A DNA stretch of 64,000 nucleotides from an uncultured Gammaproteobacteria bacterium (GTDB taxonomy: Bacteria > Patescibacteriota > Patescibacteriia > Magasanikbacterales > UBA922): assembly GCA_964394405.1 (NCBI GenBank), contig CAYMVY010000001.1:233219-297218 (forward strand), in the 5' to 3' direction. Shown in pieces: positions 4,366 to 57,250 of the stretch (its first letter is position 1; every line of letters begins with the position of its first letter). The position numbers and the translations under genes are program-made. Under the pieces are notes generated by a model that ran no database searches, had not been told where the DNA came from, and worked only from the letters and a program-made list of their open reading frames with translations.

Positions 4366-5730
4366 ATGAGTCACACAAAGCACCATAAGCAACCATATCG
4401 CGGAACAACACTCCTTATTGTGATGATCTTTGGAACCATCGCATTTGTCATAATGGTGCTTGGGGTTTTGGGGTACGCACTATTTGAACACAAAATTTCG
4501 ATGGAAATGTATCGAAGAGATGCTGCATTTCATATCGGAGAGGCAGGGATTAATTATTATCGCTGGCACCTAGCGCATAATACAACTGATTTTACTGATG
4601 GCACTGGATTGCCTGGGCCCTATACACATACAATGAGAGATAAGTTCAATACATCTGTGGGTAGCTACTCAATTACCATTTCCTCCCCACTGCCCAATTC
4701 TTCAGTCATTGAGGTTTCTTCAACAGGAACGATAATAACCTCACCGAACGCAAAGCGCGCCCTCAAGGTACGGCTCGGTTTCCCCTCATTCACAGACAGT
4801 GCATTTCTCATGAATGTAGATATGAGCTTCAGCTCAACAACACAGGTTCATGGCGAGGTATTATCGAATGGGGGCATCAAATTCGATGGCACGACTGACT
4901 CATGGGTGAGAAGTGCTCGTACTACCTACACGTATCAGGGGCAGTCCAAACCAGGGATATGGGGGAATGGTGGTCCGCAGTATTACTGGCAATTTCCAGT
5001 ACCTGCAGCTGATTTTGGATCAGTCACTGCTGATCTTGCTGCCCTAAAAACCATTTCACAACAGAGTGGCGGCAAATATTTGAGCTCTTCAGGAAGAGAG
5101 GGGTATCAGATCATTTTTAATAATACACAATATACAGTATATCGAGTGCGAACTCGCGACTGTTATGCAGGGAGCGGGGTGGATTATTGTTATGATATTG
5201 GTAGCAAGACCCTCATTGGGACATATACACTTCCCACCAATGGGGTAATGTTTATCGAAGACAATGCATGGCTCGAAGGAACTGTGGATGGTAGGGTTAC
5301 GATTGGGGTCGGAACATTTCCTGTACAAGGAACATATAAACAAGTGTATATTTCCAATAATCTGCTACAAAAACAAAAATCAAGTGATGATGTGATTGGA
5401 ATTATAGCGCAGGGCAGTATTATTATTCCCTATGAAGCCCCCAGTACTATGGAGGTAAATGCAGCAGCACTCTCACAATATGCACAAATCTATACACCAT
5501 ACTATAGTCCAAGTCAAAATCCAGGAGCGCTGAAAAATTCTCTTACCTTCTTTGGTTCTCAGATTTCGTATACAGGAGGCGGATGGAAATATATCAATGG
5601 ACAGGGGCAAGTAACTTCTGGATATTTATACACCAATCATGTATATGATGGAAATCTGAAGTACTACCCACCTCCAGGATTTCCGACAGGCTCTACGTAT
5701 GAATTGATTAGCTGGGAAGAGGTGCAATAA
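4366..5730 (+). CDS. pilus-associated protein with prepilin-like N-terminal helix (PilX-like, no Glu5)
   Basis: N-terminus PYRGTTLLIVMIFGTIAFVIMVLGVLGYA is a hydrophobic helix after RG. 454 aa. Third gene of the pilin-like trio. Confidence 0.4.
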   Translation: MSHTKHHKQPYRGTTLLIVMIFGTIAFVIMVLGVLGYALFEHKISMEMYRRDAAFHIGEAGINYYRWHLAHNTTDFTDGTGLPGPYTHTMRDKFNTSVGSYSITISSPLPNSSVIEVSSTGTIITSPNAKRALKVRLGFPSFTDSAFLMNVDMSFSSTTQVHGEVLSNGGIKFDGTTDSWVRSARTTYTYQGQSKPGIWGNGGPQYYWQFPVPAADFGSVTADLAALKTISQQSGGKYLSSSGREGYQIIFNNTQYTVYRVRTRDCYAGSGVDYCYDIGSKTLIGTYTLPTNGVMFIEDNAWLEGTVDGRVTIGVGTFPVQGTYKQVYISNNLLQKQKSSDDVIGIIAQGSIIIPYEAPSTMEVNAAALSQYAQIYTPYYSPSQNPGALKNSLTFFGSQISYTGGGWKYINGQGQVTSGYLYTNHVYDGNLKYYPPPGFPTGSTYELISWEEVQ

Positions 5731-14902: not shown

Positions 14903-16018
14903 TTATTGAGAAGAAATAAAATTCAAAATTTCAGTACTAGACTGCGCAAAGGCGCGGTCTTTTTTATGGTAATTACCTGAGAGATAGAATTCGAGCAAGG
15001 GGAGAATTTCTGCCGCTGTTTTGGCATGAGATCCGAGATGGTTTTTTTCTAAAAATTCAATATTATATTCCTCCTGTCCGGGTATAGGATTAATGGCAAT
15101 CATAGGAACACGAGACACCATACATTCAGTGGTGGTGAGACCTCCTGGTTTACTGATGACGACTGTAGCAATCCGCATAAGATCAGAGATTTCATCAGTC
15201 CACCCAAGGGGTGTATATGCGATATGTGGAGGGGGTTTAAGTGCCTTTAGACGTTGATATAGTTTTTTATTGTGACCAGATACTGCAAAAATTGCGAGTG
15301 GTTTTTTGAATGAAGAAAAAAGTTCGGTGACTATTTCTGAAATTTCTATCATACCAGATCCTCCTGAAAGAATGAGGACGCGAGGTATATGTGGAGCGAG
15401 CTTATACCGCGATTCAATACTCGCTACATCCTTTTTTTCAAAGAATTGCGGGTCGATAGGTATACCAAAGGTGTGGACCATGGTTGGTTTAATACCAAAA
15501 TGATTCACGAGTTCATGCTTCATGTCTTTCGTACTTACAATATATGAATCGATTCCTTTAACCAGTAAGACCGGGTGGACTCCATAATCAGTGAGTATTT
15601 CAGTAATTGGGATATGTTTTTTTCGTTTCTTCATGGAGTGCAGGAGAATTTCAGAAGGAAGAAAATGTGTGGAAATGATGTGATCAGGCTCAAATGAATA
15701 TACCTTATTGAGAAATTCAAATGAATTAAGCATTTTGAGATAATCTGTCAATGATCGATAAGCTTTGATAAACGTCTGGTTATCGCTCAAATAGAAGAGG
15801 GATGCCCAAACTTTGGGCAAATGTTCTACGAGAAATCCATAGCCACTCACGGTAGCCTTTTTGAGCAGGGGGGTAATATAATCAGCAATATCAATATGGA
15901 GACATTCCAAGTTGGGAAAATCAAGTCGAGCAGCTTGGGTAAGAGCTCTTGCTGCCTGGACATGTCCTGATCCTGTAGCTAGTGAGACAATTAAAATTTT
16001 CTTTGTTTTTTGGGCCAT
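14903..16018 (-). CDS. glycosyltransferase family 28, MGDG-synthase/UgtP-like diacylglycerol glycosyltransferase
   Basis: N-terminus ILIVSLATGSGHVQAARAL and C-terminal ISKPGGLTTTECMVSRVPMIAINPIPGQEEYNIEFL match the UgtP/MGDG synthase family. Confidence 0.75.
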   Translation of the reverse strand: MAQKTKKILIVSLATGSGHVQAARALTQAARLDFPNLECLHIDIADYITPLLKKATVSGYGFLVEHLPKVWASLFYLSDNQTFIKAYRSLTDYLKMLNSFEFLNKVYSFEPDHIISTHFLPSEILLHSMKKRKKHIPITEILTDYGVHPVLLVKGIDSYIVSTKDMKHELVNHFGIKPTMVHTFGIPIDPQFFEKKDVASIESRYKLAPHIPRVLILSGGSGMIEISEIVTELFSSFKKPLAIFAVSGHNKKLYQRLKALKPPPHIAYTPLGWTDEISDLMRIATVVISKPGGLTTTECMVSRVPMIAINPIPGQEEYNIEFLEKNHLGSHAKTAAEILPLLEFYLSGNYHKKDRAFAQSSTEILNFISSQ

Positions 16019-16152
16019 AGGAGAATAACATGAATAGTATACCCAAATTTTATAAACAATAAAACGCCTGTATGGCGTTATCTATATTGAGAAAGATCCC
16101 CTTCAGGGTAGCTAACCTGCTCGACATGCCAATTGGAGAGGAAGAAATATAC

Positions 16153-23500: not shown

Positions 23501-23624
23501 AACTCAAAACTAAAAACTCAAAAGTTAAAACAATAACTTAAATCTCAAAATTTATTTTGTGTCTGAGAGATTTTAGTTCTTTAGTTACAGCTTTGAGTTT
23601 TGAATTTTACGTTTTGAGTTTACC
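23501..23624. repeat. intergenic AAAACTCAAA-type imperfect palindromic repeat element (copy A)
   Basis: Left arm of AACTCAAAAC/AAAAACTCAAAAG units, right arm of CTTTGAGTTTT/CGTTTTGAGTTT units. Confidence 0.6.
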
Positions 23625-27845: not shown

Positions 27846-27966
27846 ATTTAAAACTCAAAAGTAAAAACTCAAAATTTTTAAATACAATTTTAAGTATAGC
27901 ATACGATATACGACACATGGAATACGATACAAAATTTTGAGTCGTATTATGTCTATCGTGAGTCGT
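27846..27966. repeat. repeat element copy B
   Basis: AAAACTCAAAAGTAAAAACTCAAAA ... AAAATTTTGAGTCGT. Confidence 0.5.
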
Positions 27967-29603: not shown

Positions 29604-30073
29604 ATTCCTTTTTCAAAATTTTCAATTTTTTCAAGTCTCTGAACATGGCGTTCTTGGCCTGGGAAATCTGTCTCAAGCCAGCGCTTTACAATTGCCATAG
29701 CAAAGTCTTCGGATAAGTGATCAGAAGCGAGGCATAAAATATTGGTATTATCATCAGTTACCATAGATTCTGCAGCAGCAATATTGTATCCAATACCTGC
29801 GCGGACACCTTTGACCTTATTTGCTGCCATACACACGCCCACTCCATTGCGACAAATGAGGATTCCACGCGCATTTTCTGCAACTACCCGAGTAGCTAGA
29901 GGAAAAGCATAGTCTGGATAATCATCATCCTCAACATGGTCCATAGGGCCAAGATCAGTAACAGGACGGGAGAGTTCATTTTCAATAAAACGAACCAAAC
30001 GCTTTTTGAGTGCGTATCCACCGTGGTCTCCCGAAATATAGAGTGCCCCAGAATACATAGAAATAAAAGTCAA
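29600..30073 (-). CDS. rpiB: ribose-5-phosphate isomerase B
   Basis: GILICRNGVGVCMAANKVKGVRA, the RpiB/LacAB signature. Confidence 0.8.
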   Translation of the reverse strand: MTFISMYSGALYISGDHGGYALKKRLVRFIENELSRPVTDLGPMDHVEDDDYPDYAFPLATRVVAENARGILICRNGVGVCMAANKVKGVRAGIGYNIAAAESMVTDDNTNILCLASDHLSEDFAMAIVKRWLETDFPGQERHVQRLEKIENFEKGI

Positions 30074-30112
30074 AATTCAAAGCTTAAAACTCAAAACCAT
30101 TTGAGTTGAATT
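30064..30112. repeat. repeat element copy C (short)
   Basis: AAAAGTCAAAATTCAAAGCTTAAAACTCAAAACC-ATTTGAGTTGAA. Confidence 0.45.
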
Positions 30113-31938: not shown

Positions 31939-31967
31939 TTGACTTTTTGGTTAGATACTTGTATATT
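31939..31967 (+). promoter_or_regulatory. promoter TTGACT-17-TATATT for the ileS leader
   Basis: Read directly. Confidence 0.45.
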
Positions 31968-31974
31968 TAGAACA

Positions 31975-32185
31975 CAATTGTATCAGCGTATTTTCTGCAA
32001 TCAACAGAAATTCTCTATATGAGAAGCGCTAGAGGAAGAAATCCGCGAATAGTGGAAAGTAGAACCTCTCGGGTATGCCCGTAATAGCTGCAAATAAGTG
32101 CTACCAATCGTAGAAGCAGGATGGTACCGTCCCGACTCAGTCGGGATTCCTGCAGATAGGGTAGCTTTTTGTTTTTTTAGTCTCC
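31975..32185 (+). promoter_or_regulatory. candidate T-box-like leader/attenuator upstream of ileS
   Basis: AGGATGGTACCGTC (32118-32131) resembles the T-box AGGGTGGNACCGCG. Nested terminator GCAGGA..CCCGAC-TCAG-GTCGGG..TCCTGC, then CTTTTTGTTTTTTT. About 280-nt leader before ileS ATG 32255. Confidence 0.35.
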
Positions 32186-32254: not shown

Positions 32255-35140
32255 ATGCCGTATAATGCACAAGAACAAGAGCTTGAAATATTGAAACATT
32301 GGGATACAACCGATGCGTTTCGAAAATCTGTAGAAAATCGACCGCTTGATAGACAGTATGTTTTTTATGATGGTCCTCCCTTTGCAACAGGTTTACCTCA
32401 TTACGGACATTTTGGACCTAGTGTGATGAAAGATGCCGTACCTCGCTACTGGACGATGCGGGGGCGACGCGTTGAGCGTGTATGGGGATGGGATTGTCAT
32501 GGGCTTCCGATTGAAAATATTGTTGAAAAAGAACTGGGGATCAAAAGTAAAAAAGAAATTGAAGAAATGGGTGTTGCGGAATTTAACGAAAAATGTCGCG
32601 GAAAAGTTTTGAGCTATGTAGGTGAATGGGAAAAAACGATTCATCGTCTTGGTCGCTGGGTAGATATGAAAAATGCCTATCGCACCATGGATAATAATTA
32701 CATGGAGTCAGTGTGGACCGTATTCAAACAACTTTGGGACAAAGATCTGATTTATCATGGATACAAACCCATGCATATCTGCCCTCGATGTGAGACAACT
32801 TTGTCACAGCAGGAAGTCACTGAAGGATATAAAGATATCAAAGATATTTCGGTAACGGCGAAGTTTAAAGTGAAAAATGCTAAAGAAAAATTAGGAATTG
32901 ATGGTGATGTATTTATTCTTGCATGGACGACAACTCCATGGACATTGCCAGGAAATGTATTACTCGCAGTGGGAAGTGAAATCGAATATTCACTCGTTAA
33001 AAGCGGGGAGGAATATTATATTCTTGCATCAGAATTAGTCGAAGTTAATTGTGAAGAAAAAGAATATGAAGTGGTAAAAAAACTTTCAGCTGATGAATTA
33101 GTCGGTCTCGAGTATGAACCACTATTTCCATACTTTGCAGATAGTAAAAATTCTTTCCGAGTTGTCACTGCGGATTTTGTGACTACTGAAGATGGGACTG
33201 GTGTAGTGCATCTCGCACCTGCATTTGGTACTGATGATTATGAGGTGTTCAAAAAAGAACATGTACCGTTTATTCAACATGTAAAAATGGATGGGACGTT
33301 TATTGATAAAGTGATAGATTTTGCGGGTATGCATGTGAAGCCGGCAGCAGATCATATGGCAACTGATGTGGAAATAGTGAAATGGCTGGCGCACAATGGA
33401 AAATTATTTTCAAAGAAAAAATATGAACACAGCTATCCACATTGTTGGCGTTGTGATACTCCACTCATTAATTATGCGACGAGTAGTTGGTTTGTAAATG
33501 TTACGAAGATCAAAGCAAAAGCATTGAAACAAGCAGAAAAAATCAATTGGTCTCCTGAGCATATTAAGGAAGGAAGATTTGGAAAATGGCTTGAAGGAGC
33601 TCGTGATTGGTCAATCTCACGACAGCGTTTTTGGGCTACGGTAATCCCTGTCTGGCAGAGTGCTGATGGCGATTCAATATGTATTGGCTCTATGAAAGAG
33701 CTTGAAGAATTATCTGGAAAAAAAGTGGATGATTTGCACAAGCATATTGTCGACACCATTACATTTGAAAAAGATGGTAAGACCTATACGCGGGTGCCTG
33801 ACGTACTCGACACCTGGTTTGATTCAGGTTCGATGCCCTATGCAGAAGTACATTATCCATTTGAAAATAAAGAAAAATTCGAAGCAAGTTTCCCCGCAGA
33901 ATTTATTGCGGAATCTCAGGACCAAACTCGCGCGTGGTTTTATTATTTGCATGTACTTGCTGTAAGTTTGTTTGGAAAACCAGCGTATAAAAATGTGATT
34001 GTCAACGGAATTGTGCTTGCAGAAGACGGGAAAAAGATGAGTAAGAAATTACAGAATTATCCAGATCCTAATACACTTCTTGAAAAATATGGAGCAGATG
34101 CACTTCGTTACTATTTGTTAACATCTCCAGTCATGATGGCAGAGAATCTGAACTTCTCAGAAGCAGGAGTGCGAGAAATGTATAATAAACTCGTGAATAC
34201 ATTGTGGAATGTATGTGAGTTTTATGAACTCTTTGCAGAGAAAGGTAAAAGCAAAAACGTAAAAGTAAAAAGAGAGAATATTTTAGATCGCTGGATTATA
34301 ACAAAGTTGAATATATTGGTTAAAGAAGTCACTGAGGGGATGGAAGCGTACAAACTTGCTGAGGCGAGTCGTCCGATTGTGGAATTTGTGACTGAATTAT
34401 CGCAGTGGTACGTACGACGTAGTCGCGATCGTTTCAAAGGTGATGATGCGAGTGATAAAGAAGCTGCGCTTCAGACACTTCAGACTGTGCTTCTAACTCT
34501 TTCAAAAGTCATGGCACCATTCACTCCATTTATTGCAGAAACACTGTATCAGAAAGTAGGAGGAGAGATGGAGAGTGTGCACCTCGAAGATTTTCCCGTG
34601 TATAATAAAAAAGAAGTTGATGGGGGTGTACTTGAAGAAATGACACATGTACGAAAAGTGGTGGAAATGGGTCTTGCACTTCGTGCGTCAGCTGGGATAA
34701 AAGTACGCCAGATATTATCAAAACTATATTTCAGTGGCGTCACACTTTCAGATGCGGCCAAGGAAATCGTCGCAGATGAAATGAACGTAAAAAAAGTTGT
34801 AGAAGAAATGCCCGGAACATCTGAGTTCATTACTCTGAAAGAAGACGGAAGCGTAACAGTTGGTCTAGATACTCAAATGACAGATGAATTGAAAAAAGAA
34901 GGATTGGTTCGAGAAATCATTCGCGCAGTGAATCAGATGAGAAAAGAGCAGGGGCTTACGGTGGAGGATATGGTTACACTGTATTGGCATACCGAAGATA
35001 CACAATTACAGTCAGTGTTTGAAAATTATGGAAAAGAAATTGCAACTGGAGTATTAGCCTATGAAATGGTAGAAAAGAACAATGAGGGTAAGTTAGAAAT
35101 TGAAGGAGTTACATTATCATTAACTATTGAAAAGAAATAA
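32255..35140 (+). CDS. ileS: isoleucyl-tRNA synthetase (type with KMSKK, no C-terminal Zn finger)
   Basis: HIGH-type PHYGH motif, KMSKKLQNYPDP, CP1 editing domain. 961 aa from Met 32255. Confidence 0.9.
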   Translation: MPYNAQEQELEILKHWDTTDAFRKSVENRPLDRQYVFYDGPPFATGLPHYGHFGPSVMKDAVPRYWTMRGRRVERVWGWDCHGLPIENIVEKELGIKSKKEIEEMGVAEFNEKCRGKVLSYVGEWEKTIHRLGRWVDMKNAYRTMDNNYMESVWTVFKQLWDKDLIYHGYKPMHICPRCETTLSQQEVTEGYKDIKDISVTAKFKVKNAKEKLGIDGDVFILAWTTTPWTLPGNVLLAVGSEIEYSLVKSGEEYYILASELVEVNCEEKEYEVVKKLSADELVGLEYEPLFPYFADSKNSFRVVTADFVTTEDGTGVVHLAPAFGTDDYEVFKKEHVPFIQHVKMDGTFIDKVIDFAGMHVKPAADHMATDVEIVKWLAHNGKLFSKKKYEHSYPHCWRCDTPLINYATSSWFVNVTKIKAKALKQAEKINWSPEHIKEGRFGKWLEGARDWSISRQRFWATVIPVWQSADGDSICIGSMKELEELSGKKVDDLHKHIVDTITFEKDGKTYTRVPDVLDTWFDSGSMPYAEVHYPFENKEKFEASFPAEFIAESQDQTRAWFYYLHVLAVSLFGKPAYKNVIVNGIVLAEDGKKMSKKLQNYPDPNTLLEKYGADALRYYLLTSPVMMAENLNFSEAGVREMYNKLVNTLWNVCEFYELFAEKGKSKNVKVKRENILDRWIITKLNILVKEVTEGMEAYKLAEASRPIVEFVTELSQWYVRRSRDRFKGDDASDKEAALQTLQTVLLTLSKVMAPFTPFIAETLYQKVGGEMESVHLEDFPVYNKKEVDGGVLEEMTHVRKVVEMGLALRASAGIKVRQILSKLYFSGVTLSDAAKEIVADEMNVKKVVEEMPGTSEFITLKEDGSVTVGLDTQMTDELKKEGLVREIIRAVNQMRKEQGLTVEDMVTLYWHTEDTQLQSVFENYGKEIATGVLAYEMVEKNNEGKLEIEGVTLSLTIEKK

Positions 35141-41647: not shown

Positions 41648-41745
41648 AGTCAAAAGTCGAAAGTCATAAAGTCCAAAAGTCAAAGTTCAACCTGTATTTT
41701 TGTATTTACTTTCGACTTTGTGACTTTATAGACTTTCTGACTCCT
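41648..41745. repeat. repeat element copy D (AAAGTC-unit variant)
   Basis: GTCAAAAGTCGAAAGTCATAAAGTCCAAAAGTCAAAG ... ACTTTCGACTTTGTGACTTTATAGACTTTCTGAC. Confidence 0.5.
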
Positions 41746-45036: not shown

Positions 45037-45043
45037 TGTATCT

Positions 45044-45144
45044 CAAAACGTAAAACTCAAAGCTCAAAACTGAAGCTAAAAACTCAAAAGTTTTAAGATT
45101 TAAGTTATCGTTTTGCGTTTTGACATTTGAGTTTTGAGTTACGC
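45044..45144. repeat. repeat element copy E
   Basis: CAAAACGTAAAACTCAAAGCTCAAAACTGAAGCTAAAAACTCAAAAG ... CGTTTTGCGTTTTGACATTTGAGTTTTGAGTTACG. Confidence 0.6.
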
Positions 45145-48038: not shown

Positions 48039-49178
48039 ATGCCACTTGATGCTACTCCACTCCAATCCGAACAGCCCGTTCGTTTTTACAAATTTATTGC
48101 GCTTACTTTTTTATTTATTACGCTTGCTCTTGTGGGGACGATTATTTTCATGTCCTCAAAACGAGCATCAATCACCATTATCACCAAATCAGAACCACTT
48201 GAGGTGACTGAGACAGTCACGCTTGATGAGAAAGATCCCAAAGCTCCAGTACCTGGATTTGCCACCACAACCATTGTCGAGTATTCAAAGGTTTTTTCTC
48301 CTGAAGGGACGCGAACCGAAGATGCATCAGCAGTGGGCGAGGTTATTCTGGTGAATGAGAGTGATATACCACAATCTCTCATAGCAACTACGCGGGTATT
48401 ATCAAAAGAAGGAGTATTATTCCGTCTTACTAATGGAGTGACTGTTCCAGCAGCTGGGTCAATCAAAGCTGAAGTATATGCTGATGTAAAAGGAGTATCA
48501 GGAAATATTGCGCCTACAACATTCAGTATCCCAGGACTGAGCGCAGACAAGCAAAAAGTAATTTATGCAAAAAGTGAAAATCCTATGAGCGGCGGAGTGC
48601 GAACATTCGGAGTGGTTGCAGTTGCTGATGTGACAAAAGCAGAAAAAATAATGCTCGAAGAGATGAAAGCAAAAGGGTCTAAAACACTTGAGTCAGCGGC
48701 AGATGAGGGGATGACTGGAGTATTTGATGTAGTCCAATATACCTTCGAACCCATTGCAGAAGTCGGAAAAGAGGTTGATTCTTTTACACTCAAAGGCAAG
48801 GCAACGGTAGTTGGTGTCTGGTATGATGCAGCAAAAGCAAAAACATATGCAGAAGAAGTATTGAAGAAACGAGTAGTGGATAATAGTGAAATTCTTTCAT
48901 CAATGGAGCCTGAGCCGAGTATTACACTTGGGGAATATGATTTGCTTGGGAGTACTGCACAACTCACGATTACGCATCGTGGACTCGTAAATATTGATGA
49001 AAACAGTGCTGAATTGCAAAAAGTTAATTTTTTTGGAAAATCAGAGGATGAGGTCAAGCGCTATGTCATGTCTTTGAAGCATGTAGAAGGGGTGGAGATG
49101 GTGTTCAAACCACTCTGGAACCGGAGTGTACCTCGTGTTGCTGATAATGTAGAAGTTATCATTCGGGAAGTTGAGTAG
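48039..49178 (+). CDS. hypothetical bitopic membrane protein downstream of pilB
   Basis: N-terminal TM FIALTFLFITLALVGTIIF, then a 340-aa extracytoplasmic domain. Confidence 0.4.
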   Translation: MPLDATPLQSEQPVRFYKFIALTFLFITLALVGTIIFMSSKRASITIITKSEPLEVTETVTLDEKDPKAPVPGFATTTIVEYSKVFSPEGTRTEDASAVGEVILVNESDIPQSLIATTRVLSKEGVLFRLTNGVTVPAAGSIKAEVYADVKGVSGNIAPTTFSIPGLSADKQKVIYAKSENPMSGGVRTFGVVAVADVTKAEKIMLEEMKAKGSKTLESAADEGMTGVFDVVQYTFEPIAEVGKEVDSFTLKGKATVVGVWYDAAKAKTYAEEVLKKRVVDNSEILSSMEPEPSITLGEYDLLGSTAQLTITHRGLVNIDENSAELQKVNFFGKSEDEVKRYVMSLKHVEGVEMVFKPLWNRSVPRVADNVEVIIREVE

Positions 49179-49180
49179 TC

Positions 49181-49209
49181 TTGACCGCAAATCGTATTTT
49201 CAGTATAGT
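49181..49209 (+). promoter_or_regulatory. promoter TTGACC-17-TATAGT for the thrS leader
   Basis: Read directly, immediately after the stop of the upstream gene. Confidence 0.5.
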
Positions 49210-49215
49210 TTCTCT

Positions 49216-49395
49216 ACTAAAGCGCAATTACGAGAACCTGCCCAGCTCCGACGTTACGTCGGAGCATGGTACCACTCTCGGAGCTTTATACAAATTTGAA
49301 AAAGGTAAATAACGGGTGGAACCGTCCTGACATAACAGTCTAGACCCCGGCGCTATCGAGAGTGAAGTCTCAGGTGCTGGGGTTTTTGTTTAAGT
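49216..49395 (+). promoter_or_regulatory. candidate T-box-like leader upstream of thrS
   Basis: AACGGGTGGAACCGTCC (49311-49327) matches the T-box core GGGTGGNACCG. Terminator CCCCGGCGC..GTGCTGGGG + TTTTTGTTT at 49343-49391. ACC threonine codon present in the upstream hairpin region. Confidence 0.4.
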
Positions 49396-49468
49396 AAAAG
49401 TGCAAAAGGAAAAAGTCAAAAGAAAATTCTCAATCTTTTTACTTTTACCTTTTTACTTTTTACTTGTG
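49395..49468. repeat. repeat element copy F (AAAAGT-unit variant)
   Basis: GTAAAAGTGCAAAAGGAAAAAGTCAAAAG ... TTTTTACTTTTACCTTTTTACTTTTTACTTG. Confidence 0.45.
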
Positions 49469-49473
49469 AATGT

Positions 49474-51219
49474 ATGGAAAAAGAACAACTTGAACATCTA
49501 CGCCATTCCGCTGCACATCTACTTGCTGCAGCAGTGGAAGAATTATACCCACATGCAAAGCGAACGATTGGTCCGGCTATTGAGGATGGGTTTTATTATG
49601 ATTTCGACTTTGGGGTTGAAAAAATTAATGATGAAGATTTGAAGAAAATTGAGAAGCGAATGGGTGAAATCGTCAAACATTGGAAAGAGTTTGAACACCG
49701 AGAAGTGACTGCTGACGAAGCAAAAGAGTTTTTCAAAGACAATGAATATAAGAAAGAATTGATTGAGGAATTCGCAGGCGAGGGCGCAACACTTACGTTC
49801 TATACTGCAGGAAAATTTACTGACTTATGTCGTGGTGGACATAGTGAGAATCCTTCAAAAGAACTCCGCAATTTCAAATTGTTGAGTGTGGCAGGAGCAT
49901 ACTGGAGAGGGGATGAAAAAAATAAAATGTTGACTCGAATTTATGGCACTGCATTTCCTACCAAGGATGAATTGCAGAAATATCTGGAAATGCGAGAAGA
50001 AGCAAAGAAGCGAGATCATCGAAAAATCGGTAAAGACCAGGAATTATTCCTGATTGATGATCGAGTAGGAAAAGGTCTTGTGATGTGGCTCCCAAATGGA
50101 ACCATAATTCGAAATGAGATTGAAAAATTTGCGACTGAAATGGAAGAAGCATATGACTATCAGAGAGTAGTCACCCCGCATATGGCAAAGGAGGATCTGT
50201 ACCTCACTTCAGGACACCTGCCATACTATAAAGAAGGAATGTACCCTGCAATGGTCATGGATGATGGCACCTACTATCTCCGCGCCATGAATTGCCCCCA
50301 TCACCATATCATCTATGGATCAAGTCCTCGCAGTTATCGTGAACTTCCACTTCGACTTGCTGAATATGGCACGGTGTATCGCAATGAATTGTCAGGAACC
50401 CTTGCAGGCCTGCTTCGCGTACGCGGACTTACCATGAATGACGCGCATATCTACTGTACCAAAGAGCAGATCAAAGATGAGTTCAAACGAGTGATGGAAT
50501 TAACCATGAATTATTTCAAGACGTTTGGACTTGAAAATTACTGGTTCCGCCTTTCAAAATGGAGTCCGGAACACAAAGACAAATATATTGATCAACCAGA
50601 AAATTGGGAAATGGCTGAGGCTGTGCTCCGCGATGTATTGACTGAGATGCATGTAACATTTGTGGAGGCTGAAGACGAGGCTGCCTTCTACGGACCAAAA
50701 GTGGATGTACAGTTCAAATCAGTAATAGGTCGCGAGGAAACCATGTCGACCATACAACTCGACTTCCTTGCACGCGAGAGATTCAAATTGAACTATATTG
50801 ATGAAGAAGGAAAAGAAAATAACCAAGTATTTGTCATTCATCGGGCACCTCTGTCGACCCACGAGAGGTTCACTGCATTCCTCATTGAGCATTATGCCGG
50901 AATCTGGCCTACCTGGCTCTCTCCGGTCGCTGTAGCGCTCGTACCAGTGTCTGAGAAGCATGTCGTGGGAGCTGAATCACTTGCGAGAGAATTTCGGGCA
51001 GAGGGAATCAGAGTATCTATTGATAGAGCTGACGAAACAGTAGGGAAGAAAATCAGAAAAGCTGCTCAGAGCAAGGTTCCGTATATGCTGGTCATTGGTG
51101 ACAAAGAACTCGAAGGTGGGGATTTCATGGTCCGTATGCGAGGGGTTGAAGAACAGGTGAGTATTTCAAAGAGTGAGTTTGTCGCGAAGGTGAAGGCTGA
51201 AATTAGAGAGAGGAAGTAA
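49474..51219 (+). CDS. thrS: threonyl-tRNA synthetase (no N-terminal TGS domain)
   Basis: HxxxH editing-domain motif HSAAHLL, class II motifs, zinc site RAMNCPHH, C-terminal anticodon-binding domain. Confidence 0.85.
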   Translation: MEKEQLEHLRHSAAHLLAAAVEELYPHAKRTIGPAIEDGFYYDFDFGVEKINDEDLKKIEKRMGEIVKHWKEFEHREVTADEAKEFFKDNEYKKELIEEFAGEGATLTFYTAGKFTDLCRGGHSENPSKELRNFKLLSVAGAYWRGDEKNKMLTRIYGTAFPTKDELQKYLEMREEAKKRDHRKIGKDQELFLIDDRVGKGLVMWLPNGTIIRNEIEKFATEMEEAYDYQRVVTPHMAKEDLYLTSGHLPYYKEGMYPAMVMDDGTYYLRAMNCPHHHIIYGSSPRSYRELPLRLAEYGTVYRNELSGTLAGLLRVRGLTMNDAHIYCTKEQIKDEFKRVMELTMNYFKTFGLENYWFRLSKWSPEHKDKYIDQPENWEMAEAVLRDVLTEMHVTFVEAEDEAAFYGPKVDVQFKSVIGREETMSTIQLDFLARERFKLNYIDEEGKENNQVFVIHRAPLSTHERFTAFLIEHYAGIWPTWLSPVAVALVPVSEKHVVGAESLAREFRAEGIRVSIDRADETVGKKIRKAAQSKVPYMLVIGDKELEGGDFMVRMRGVEEQVSISKSEFVAKVKAEIRERK

Positions 51220-56290: not shown

Positions 56291-57139
56291 TTACGCTATT
56301 GAGAAGATATTTTTTTGTTTTGTTATCATTCCTTCTTTGGTGAGTCTAAGTAACACCTCATGTATATGTGATTCATCGTATTCTTCAAGATAGAGATCAG
56401 AGAGCGATTCAAGTGTGGTGTGCCCTTTTGAAATGTCGCGGAGGATCATGCCACGCAATTTTCTATTTGACCCTTCAAATTTACTTTGTTTCGAATAATG
56501 TTTACTTCGTCTGCTTGGATTTTTGTTTGTCTCTTTCAGCCACGTACCATAATCCATAAGCGCATTGTACCAGTCGCGTGGATTTTTTTTATCGAGAGCT
56601 GCCTCTACATAGGGCAATAATTCTTTGTCAGTCACTTCAGTTTTATCACCAAAAAATTCATGTATAAATACACTTCGTATATTTGTTTCAATAAAGACAC
56701 TTGGGTAATTATAGGCGTATGCTGCGATTGATCCAGCAGTGTGGGGACCAATCCAGGGGAGACCCACTAATTTTTCTGGAGTTTTGGGTAATTTTCCTTT
56801 GTATTCAGAAATAATAATTTCAGCAAGTTTTTTCAATCCCATTGCGCGACGATTGTACCCCAGTCCCTGCCACACGGCGAGAATATCCTTAAAAGGAGCT
56901 TTTGCTAATGCTTCAAAATTAGGAAATGTTTTGATAAATAATGTAAATTTCTCTACCACTCTCGGAGCCTGTGTTTGTTGCAACATGATTTCAGAAACTA
57001 CTATTTTGTACGGCGTAATTCCTTTTCTCCAGGGGAAGTCACGCTTATTTTTGTGGTAGTAAGTGTAGATTTTATTTTGAAATTGTTGAATCTGTTTTTT
57101 GGATAGGGGAGATTTCATATTACGTAACTCAAAACTCAA
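56291..57139 (-). CDS. HhH-GPD DNA glycosylase, MutY/EndoIII-like, lacking Fe-S cysteines
   Basis: DFPWRKGITPYKIVVSEIMLQQTQAPRV...WQGLGYNRRA matches the MutY N-terminal core. No Cys cluster in the C-terminal half. Confidence 0.55.
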   Translation of the reverse strand: MSFELRNMKSPLSKKQIQQFQNKIYTYYHKNKRDFPWRKGITPYKIVVSEIMLQQTQAPRVVEKFTLFIKTFPNFEALAKAPFKDILAVWQGLGYNRRAMGLKKLAEIIISEYKGKLPKTPEKLVGLPWIGPHTAGSIAAYAYNYPSVFIETNIRSVFIHEFFGDKTEVTDKELLPYVEAALDKKNPRDWYNALMDYGTWLKETNKNPSRRSKHYSKQSKFEGSNRKLRGMILRDISKGHTTLESLSDLYLEEYDESHIHEVLLRLTKEGMITKQKNIFSIA

Positions 57140-57250
57140 ATGTCAAAACTTAAAACTGTAACTAAAAACTTAAAACCAATACTCTATCTAAATTAAGTTT
57201 TAAAATTTACGTTATAGTTTTGAACTTTGAGTTTTACGTTTTGAGTTTTA
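57121..57250. repeat. repeat element copy G
   Basis: CGTAACTCAAAACTCAAATGTCAAAACTTAAAACTGTAAC ... GTTTTGAACTTTGAGTTTTACGTTTTGAGTTTTAG. Positions 57123-57149 are the reverse complement of 45117-45143. Confidence 0.6.

Follow-up and report, generated by a model that had tools for sequence, protein, structure and literature searches.

In the 64,000-nucleotide (nt) stretch of DNA that we analysed, hereafter the window (contig CAYMVY010000001.1, positions 233,219 to 297,218), the threonyl-tRNA synthetase (ThrRS) gene thrS is preceded by a leader that an initial annotation had described as a T-box. The gene (49474-51219; 581 aa; Pfam tRNA_SAD, tRNA-synt_2b and HGTP_anticodon) lies on the plus strand, as do all the features of its leader given below, and the leader occupies 49181-49473 on the same strand, where it had been placed. 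This is the position expected of a T-box, before an aminoacyl-tRNA synthetase (aaRS) or amino-acid-related gene, in its 5' leader and on its strand, and it is equal in 11 relatives. A sigma-70-type promoter (49181-49209) begins 3 nt past the stop codon of the open reading frame 48039-49178, with a -35 element TTGACC (49181-49186), a 17-nt spacer and a -10 element TATAGT (49204-49209), just as annotated; it scores 10/12 in a consensus scan. TTGAC and TATAGT stand unchanged at the same place in the relatives L001, L081 and L082 and are also present in L203-L207, L209 and L211. Transcription is predicted to start near 49216.

The closest ThrRS homologues are 72-95% identical, those at 72% being Candidatus Magasanikbacteria proteins and those of up to 95% proteins of metagenome-assembled genomes (MAGs); the window comes from a bacterium of the Patescibacteria (candidate phyla radiation, CPR). 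The synthetase opens directly with the editing (tRNA_SAD) region; no N-terminal TGS domain was found in it by Pfam, and its homologues in the clade are equally long.

Relatives were gathered by a genome scan and by look-ups of ThrRS homologues, and are cited here by locus number. The wider clade comprises 12 leaders: that of the window, those of L001, L081, L082, L211 and L209 (ThrRS 79-95% identical), those of L203-L207 (72-75% identical) and that of L033, a Magasanikbacteria MAG. Some 17 thrS leaders with GGUGGAACC were added from other Patescibacteria, Chloroflexota and Clostridia; the motif was found in 29 thrS leaders. A metagenome scan with the degenerate core GGNTGGNACCGTCCNGAC returned at least 120 stretches, and among the matches listed all were chance matches in high-GC coding DNA and no relatives.

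The whole leader folds far better than its shuffles (z -6.1). The T-box core that had been claimed for it, AACGGGTGGAACCGTCC, is present at 49311-49327 and matches GGGTGGNACCG exactly; within it the conserved T-box sequence GGGUGGNACCG is exact at 49314-49324. The 11-nt motif alone is not above chance: with up to one mismatch it has two matches in the 64 kb where 1.35 are expected, and two or more turn up in 41 of 100 shuffles. The extended core TGGNACCGTCCNGAC, by contrast, has just two exact copies over both strands (128 kb), one in the thrS leader and one in the ileS leader, and none in 100 shuffles.

Around this core an antiterminator (49313-49349) forms as the minimum free energy (MFE) structure of the isolated segment. 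Its outer helix, A1, pairs CGGG (49313-49316) with CCCG (49346-49349); the 7-nt T-box bulge UGGAACC (49317-49323) follows; and the inner helix, A2, is built of GUC/GAC plus GAC/GUC (49324-49345) and closed by the loop AUAACA. Folded alone, the segment 49309-49351 adopts this structure at -11.0 kcal/mol in 87% of the ensemble. The same architecture, with A1, a 7-nt bulge UGGNACC and A2, recurs in 12 of 12 clade leaders (-8.9 to -13.9 kcal/mol). Every thrS leader reads UGGA at the start of the bulge, whereas the ileS leader reads UGGU, which is the expectation if this position tracks the discriminator base of the tRNA.

The antiterminator helices covary. In an alignment of 27 thrS leaders from Patescibacteria, Chloroflexota and Clostridia (A3, loops excised), 88.8% of A1 and A2 cells are paired, compared with 67.8% in shuffles (0 of 500 reach the observed value) and 24-55% in slid registers; these counts lean towards the structure because the 3' anchor of each leader was picked by the pairing of the inner pairs, a choice in which the outer pairs played no part. 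The helices were located by a finder requiring at least 4 bp in A1 and at least 3 bp in A2, with L004 placed by hand. Nine of the ten pairs change on both sides across the 27 leaders, one of which passes Rfam: double changes include CGGG/CCCG, UUUGGG/CCCAAA, ACAAGG/CCUUGU and UUGAGG/CCUCAA, and the first A2 pair is seen as G-C, A-U and U-A.

The intrinsic terminator announced in the initial annotation, with its internal GAGA..TCTC hairpin and T-run, lies at 49345-49391. Its stem joins 49345-49354 to 49373-49382 through the arms CCCCGGCGC and GTGCTGGGG, which enclose the inner hairpin GAGA-GTGAAG-TCTC and are followed by TTTTTGTTT, with the U-tract UUUUUGUUU at 49383-49391; the fold reaches -25.5 kcal/mol (z -5.2). 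Nucleotides 49345-49349 are common to the terminator and the antiterminator, so that the two folds are mutually exclusive, and the terminator (-25.5 kcal/mol) beats the antiterminator (-11.0 kcal/mol) when both are possible. Pairing between the T-box motif and the terminator's 5' strand, which the initial annotation had named as a test, is thus possible, through 49345-49349. A hairpin with a U-tract follows the antiterminator in 12 of 12 clade leaders (-18.6 to -36.2 kcal/mol), and in 11 of them it shares the antiterminator's 3' strand; the sequences of terminator stem and loop are unrelated between subclades.

Upstream of the core is a short Stem I, which alone folds at z -5.3. Its base helix pairs UAAAGC (49218-49223) with GCUUUA (49283-49288) in the MFE fold, and its lower helix pairs CGAGA(A) (49231-49236) with (C)UCUCG (49275-49280). 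The 5' strands of these helices are separated by the internal loop GCAAUUA (49224-49230), at the site of the bulged strand of the kink-turn (K-turn) in canonical T-boxes; GA is absent from it, and among relatives it varies (GUUUGUA, GUAAUCA, GUUUGCA, ACUCCUGGC and AGGC). On the 3' side (49275-49288), the strands CUCUCG and GCUUUA are split by GA (49281-49282), the non-bulged strand of a K-turn-like motif. Above the lower helix, 49237-49244 hold the 5' side of the specifier loop (CCU), the GCC of a GCC/GGU helix and the CA of a conserved 2x2 internal loop, and the returning strand (49266-49274) holds AU, the GGU that pairs with GCC 49240-49242, the specifier ACC (49271-49273) and a conserved purine (A49274). 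Between them stands the distal element (49245-49265), a plain 9-bp hairpin with a UUA loop, which is the upstream hairpin GCTCCGACG-TTA-CGTCGGAGC of the initial annotation.

Nine leaders share one order of Stem I elements: base helix, variable loop, lower helix, CC[U/A]GCCCAG, distal element, AUGGUAC[C/U]A, and 3' strands split by GA. Both CC[U/A]GCCCAG and AUGGUAC[C/U]A are invariant in these nine, and L209 and L211, read directly, have the same layout. In the base and lower helices of eight distinct relatives (alignment A4), 88.3% of cells are paired, compared with 66.6% in shuffles (0 of 500 reach the observed value) and 32-40% when the register is slid; compensatory changes occur at 11 of 15 pairs. 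These counts lean towards the structure because the 5' strand of the base helix was picked by pairing, while the lower helix, aligned on its invariant flanks alone, was not fitted to it. Compensatory swaps turn the base helix into GUAUAC/GUAUAC in L033 and UGAAGC/GCUUCA in L209, and where the window has CGAGA/UCUCG in the lower helix, relatives have CAAAAU/AUUUUG, ACAGCG/CGCUUU, ACAACG/CGUUUU and GAAACA/UGUUUU.

The threonine codon stands where a specifier should stand. ACC followed by A (49271-49274) is on the 3' side of the Stem I loop, directly 5' of the 3' strand of the lower helix, and a threonine codon plus A occupies this side in all 11 leaders with a long Stem I (ACC in ten, ACU in L033); in L207, ACU plus A is found in the terminal loop of an ultrashort Stem I. 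The context ACC-A-helix-GAGC matches that of the Rfam-aligned L008 leader (GAAAACC-A-CCCG-CGAGC). The threonine codon proposed initially was another one, the ACC at 49236-49238 within GAGAACCUG; it is not the specifier, because its place is the 5' side and L033 has UCC there, and the conserved codon is the one at 49271-49273. The specifier side also reads UGGUACC at 49267-49273, containing the palindrome GGUACC and fitting the bulge pattern UGGNACC; we take this as a coincidence of the GGU that pairs with GCC standing beside the ACC codon.

Conservation within the leader is uneven. Between the window and L001, L081 and L082, third codon positions of thrS are 50-65% identical; the corresponding figures are 96-100% for the 3' (specifier) side of Stem I, 92-95% for the T-box and antiterminator, and 65-75% for the distal hairpin. 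The presumptive tRNA-contacting parts are therefore under purifying selection, which counts against the leader being a decayed relic.

A second T-box-like leader (31953-32182, plus strand) lies upstream of ileS (32255-35140), and the claim that two aaRS genes of the window carry such leaders is borne out: the ileS leader scores 23.8 bits (E 0.002) with the Rfam T-box model RF00230, it gives the top match of an independent model, R1, and it shares its core with the thrS leader. R1 describes the discriminator core and was built from 18 leaders of other lineages, L008 included and the window clade excluded. Scanned over the whole window with filters off, it placed the ileS leader first (32106-32155; 23.4 bits, E 9e-6) and matched the thrS leader at 49301-49353 (16.6 bits, E 0.003); in all clade relatives searched it likewise matches where the leader lies, scoring 15.6-29.3 bits. 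The R1 result is supporting and not decisive, the model being short and weak with little discriminating power.

The two leaders differ in design. Stem I of the ileS leader is an ultrashort hairpin, UUUCUG-CAAUCAA-CAGAAA (31992-32010), whose 7-nt terminal loop carries the isoleucine codon AUC (32000-32002) plus A. Its antiterminator has A1 GCAGGA/UUCCUGC, the bulge UGGUACC and A2 GUCCCGAC/GUCGGGAU. Its topology is unusual: the sole helix linked to a U-tract, GCUACC (32100) with GGUAGC (32162), encloses this antiterminator and does not compete for its 3' strand; the 5' strand of the same helix is also used by a Stem III-like hairpin, CUAC-CAAUC-GUAG.

Several results weigh against reading the thrS leader as a T-box. 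The RF00230 scan suggested by the initial annotation found no match in the window at the gathering score (93 bits) and none at E<=10 on 48900-49700 (801 nt), so the thrS leader is unmatched at either level and one half of what had been named as refuting the call, the lack of a covariance-model hit alongside a motif just as frequent in coding regions, was in fact observed. The relatives of the window clade likewise gave no RF00230 match at E<=1. In the R1 scan the thrS leader ranks only fourth in the window; the second and third matches (4486-4519 and 16007-16057) we read as spurious, the T-box core being deleted in them and the matches lying in or beside unrelated genes. Helix A1 is only 4 bp long, and in L211 the terminator overlaps A1 by just 1 nt. 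The L211 terminator (about 880-990 of that locus; ThrRS 88% identical) is GGCACUUCG..CGGAGUGCC followed by U6, and its two folds are barely exclusive; L211 is a single Logan contig in which an assembly error is possible. Neither the window nor the thrS loci L001-L082 and L203-L208 yielded a tRNA-Thr gene to ARAGORN; the only tRNA genes of the window are for His and Arg. To these points must be added the lean of the A3 and A4 pair counts towards the structure.

The same side of the scale holds the canonical domains that the leader is without. From Stem I to A1 there are just 24 single-stranded nt, an A-rich linker UACAAAUUUGAAAAAGGUAAAUAA (49289-49312), and in them we found neither a Stem II nor a IIA/B pseudoknot; Stem II is described as becoming essential where the platform is absent (PMC7583486). 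Stem II with its S-turn and the IIA/B pseudoknot are absent from the glyQS class and hence not universal. No Stem III hairpin folds in this linker either, and Stem III is indispensable for binding of the tRNA 3' end in characterised T-boxes (PMC7583486). The Stem III motif, 5'-RRRxG-Stem III-AA-3', is part of the discriminator domain (PMC7583486), and its purine flanks are kept in the linker (AAAGG.U and AAAUAA) around the missing hairpin. Among relatives a hairpin occupies the Stem III site in L206 and L082 and is lacking in L203-L205, L207, L033, L001, L081, L209 and L211. A K-turn is found in nearly all T-boxes (PMC7583486); at the level of sequence the thrS leader has no canonical one, with GA on the 3' strand and UA (CA or GC in relatives) on the bulged strand.

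The distal platform of Stem I, formed by the AG bulge and the distal loop as interdigitated T-loops that dock the tRNA elbow, is also missing, and a plain hairpin stands in its place. Within the clade the distal segment varies in sequence and length: the window has 20 nt, L211 has about 10 nt, cut down to CGG-CAU-CCG, L082 and L209 have 17 nt, and L001 and L081 have 29-41 nt. In L203-L206 it measures 60-61 nt and carries AGAGAAAGC..GAUUGAAAGCUUUCU, a motif that looks like the AG bulge and distal loop seen in two canonical leaders from Clostridia, L038 and L068; L033, at 62 nt, has a more divergent version. The platform is therefore still present in relatives with 73-75% ThrRS identity.

The Rfam result follows from what is missing: RF00230 fails because the platform, Stem II, Stem III and the K-turn are absent, and the T-box claim survives that failure because the Rfam model needs domains that the thrS leader is without. 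The RF00230 scores themselves form a graded series from canonical T-boxes to the window leader, since L008, from the Chloroflexota, passes with 93.7 bits as the sole leader examined to reach the gathering score, three other CPR thrS leaders score 28-40 bits (best 39.5), and the window clade gives no match. Other Rfam families offer no competing identity: the whole-window scan at gathering score gave two tRNAs only, and the scan at E<=10 of 48900-49700 gave only low-complexity miRNA and snoRNA noise on an AT-rich hairpin downstream of the terminator.

Taking both sides together, we consider that the thrS leader is very probably a transcription-attenuating T-box riboswitch specific for tRNA-Thr. 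This reading, and with it the central claim of the initial annotation, draws on the sequence elements, the two exclusive folds, the covariation of A1/A2 and of proximal Stem I, the threonine codon at its canonical position, the R1 matches, homology to Rfam-accepted leaders and purifying selection. The missing domains speak for one other explanation, namely that the leader is a T-box in decay, which has lost tRNA sensing and sets thrS expression as a constitutive attenuator or one controlled otherwise, for example by a protein or by nucleoside triphosphate levels. Domains described as essential are indeed gone (PMC7583486), A1 has shrunk to four pairs, the L211 terminator hardly overlaps its antiterminator, and some relatives (L208 and L210) have lost the leader altogether. 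Against decay, the two elements that would touch the tRNA are conserved best (96-100% and 92-95%, against 50-65% at synonymous sites); where the specifier has changed it remains a threonine codon (ACC to ACU), and the purine flanks of Stem III persist without their hairpin. A mere terminator needs none of the specifier, the bulge with A1 and A2, or the purine flanks, and we regard the decayed form as improbable.

Two further explanations do away with tRNA sensing from the outset. Because the gene is thrS and AUGGUAC (49266-49272) superficially resembles the anticodon loop of tRNA-Thr(GGU), N-U-GGU-A-N, the leader might mimic part of tRNA-Thr and be bound by ThrRS in autoregulation, as in E. 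coli thrS. The flanks of AUGGUAC are unpaired, so that it forms no hairpin loop; in the folds its GGU is base-paired to the invariant GCC 49240-49242; what is conserved is the codon and not an anticodon arm, the switch is one of terminator and antiterminator and not of ribosome-site occlusion, and the same core before ileS would go unexplained. This makes an operator of that kind very unlikely; in its E. coli form it was rejected, AUGGUAC being no hairpin loop and lying about 200 nt from the start codon. We give as little credence to an independent small RNA gene of about 175 nt, from promoter to terminator, or to a leader-peptide attenuator, in spite of the leader's own promoter and strong terminator and of an AUG at 49266 that opens a 26-codon frame. 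In relatives the element is always directly upstream of thrS on the same strand, it has no credible match to an Rfam small RNA family, and a terminated T-box leader would itself be a short RNA, which leaves the small RNA reading non-exclusive. The 26-codon frame has only two threonine codons and no ribosome-binding site and stops after four codons in L033; leader-peptide attenuation was rejected on the ground that this frame is not conserved.

As a T-box, the thrS leader would work as follows. Transcription would begin at the TTGACC/TATAGT promoter, and the short Stem I would fold first, its internal loop offering ACC (49271-49273) and the stacking purine to the GGU anticodon of tRNA-Thr. The T-box sequence could then either form the weak antiterminator or cede its 3' strand (49345-49349) to the stronger terminator with UUUUUGUUU. 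If the tRNA-Thr is uncharged, its free 3'-NCCA would pair with UGGA of the bulge, stabilising the antiterminator and allowing read-through into thrS; charged tRNA-Thr would be unable to pair, the terminator would form and transcription would stop at about 49391. The reduced leader would have to hold the tRNA by the codon-anticodon and NCCA-bulge contacts only, plus the purine strings that it has kept. We infer tRNA binding, the sensing of charging and the transcriptional read-out.

Class I transcriptional T-boxes (RF00230), such as the tyrS and thrS leaders of Bacillus subtilis, are the closest comparison. With them the thrS leader shares its place before an aaRS gene, GGGUGGNACCG, the 7-nt bulge UGGNACC between A1 and A2, a Stem I loop that carries the codon and a purine on its 3' side, immediately above a helix ending in GAGC, and a competing terminator with a U-tract that uses the 3' strand of A1. 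Unlike them it is without the AG-bulge and distal-loop platform, Stem II or the IIA/B pseudoknot and the Stem III hairpin; its specifier loop has no S-turn and just 3 nt opposite 4-5 nt; the bulged K-turn strand lacks GA; and A2 opens with G-C, reading GUCC and not GCG. We class the thrS leader as a reduced T-box variant, in which the core features are present, four accessory features are absent and the Rfam threshold is not reached.

The glyQS T-boxes are similar in being transcriptional, in having a single-stranded linker from Stem I to the discriminator and in lacking the Stem II domain; unlike the thrS leader they have an intact Stem I platform, Stem III and a K-turn. That they can dispense with Stem II has been put down to strong GGC:GCC pairing (PMC7583486), whereas the codon of the thrS leader is ACC. 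The actinobacterial ileS T-boxes, which are translational (class II) and have an ultrashort Stem I, also do without the elbow-binding platform, and their terminal-loop design is seen in the thrS leaders of other Patescibacteria (CUACCAA) and in the ileS leader of the window (CAAUCAA); unlike them, the thrS leader has its specifier in an internal loop, lacks Stem II and is terminator-based. The E. coli thrS operator is translational, a mimic of the tRNA-Thr anticodon arm that is bound by ThrRS. It serves the same gene and the same system of threonine and tRNA-Thr charging, but by another mechanism and with another RNA, the thrS leader of the window having no anticodon-arm mimic and being of the terminator/antiterminator type.

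We propose only tentatively that in the clade of the window, L001, L081, L082, L209 and L211 the leader is a naturally minimal, functional T-box that senses tRNA-Thr charging by means of just a small specifier loop and an antiterminator without Stem III, possibly with the help of a lineage-specific protein. The clade is a natural experiment on the minimal T-box, in which the contact sequences are selected while supposedly essential domains are absent. If the proposal is true, what now counts as an indispensable T-box domain would not be so in general, and the clade would record a step-wise loss of domains, because relatives with 73-75% ThrRS identity keep the platform. Specialists would not expect a T-box that is under selection and yet has no platform, Stem II, Stem III or K-turn, and it would make the question of the minimal T-box directly testable. 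For bacteria that depend on hosts, have tiny genomes and possess few known regulators, the leader would supply one concrete circuit, with tRNA charging controlling thrS and ileS at least in this genome.

In Patescibacteria, thrS seems commonly to be preceded by a T-box. We found no literature linking T-boxes with the CPR or Patescibacteria, and the variant may still have been described beyond the literature covered. TBDB was seeded from the Rfam model and from a class II model built on Actinobacteria only (PMC7778990); RF00230-based surveys such as TBDB would under-count these T-boxes, because among the leaders examined only L008 reaches the gathering score. An ultrashort Stem I with the terminal loop C-U-ACC-A-A (GAUACUAA in L207), combined with a terminator, is the design of most other CPR thrS leaders (L017, L036, L045, L046, L057, L064, L069, L018, L028, L004 and L207); none of the ultrashort ones reaches the Rfam gathering score. 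Many thrS loci of other lineages have a tRNA-Val(GAC) gene immediately 5' of thrS or of its T-box, for example at 2545-2619 of L002 and 2483-2557 of L008. The MAG records L001, L002, L005, L018, L032 and L064 are titled 'uncultured Gammaproteobacteria bacterium', and their thrS loci are Patescibacteria-like in closest ThrRS and in CPR-type leaders; the titles are probably automatic mislabels.

Between the terminator and the start codon of thrS lies a long AT-rich hairpin (49391-49466), made of heptamer repeats that form an A-rich arm and then a U-rich arm and that TRF reports as arrays. It folds at -22.3 kcal/mol (z -3.8) and does not belong to the T-box. L082 has it at about 90% identity, and L001, L081 and L211 lack it. 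In L082 the called thrS product of 611 aa starts at 2001, 84 nt 5' of the conserved ATG (locus position 2085), and probably represents a miscalled start that reads through this hairpin. Hairpins of the same design and of unrelated sequence are found at the same place, between terminator and ATG, in L203-L205. The window itself holds a family of such AT-rich tandem-heptamer hairpins, at 23501-23621, 41648-41742, 45042-45140, 49391-49466 and 57126-57250 (the last on the minus strand), with single heptamer arrays at 27850-27874 and 30065-30097. Each hairpin consists of an A-rich array (AACTCAA, AGTCAAA or AAAAGTN) followed by its complement, and they fold at -22 to -35 kcal/mol (z -3.2 to -5.8). 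At least four of the five pairs are directly upstream of the start of an open reading frame on the same strand, and 41648-41742 ends about 100 nt before the S1 gene.

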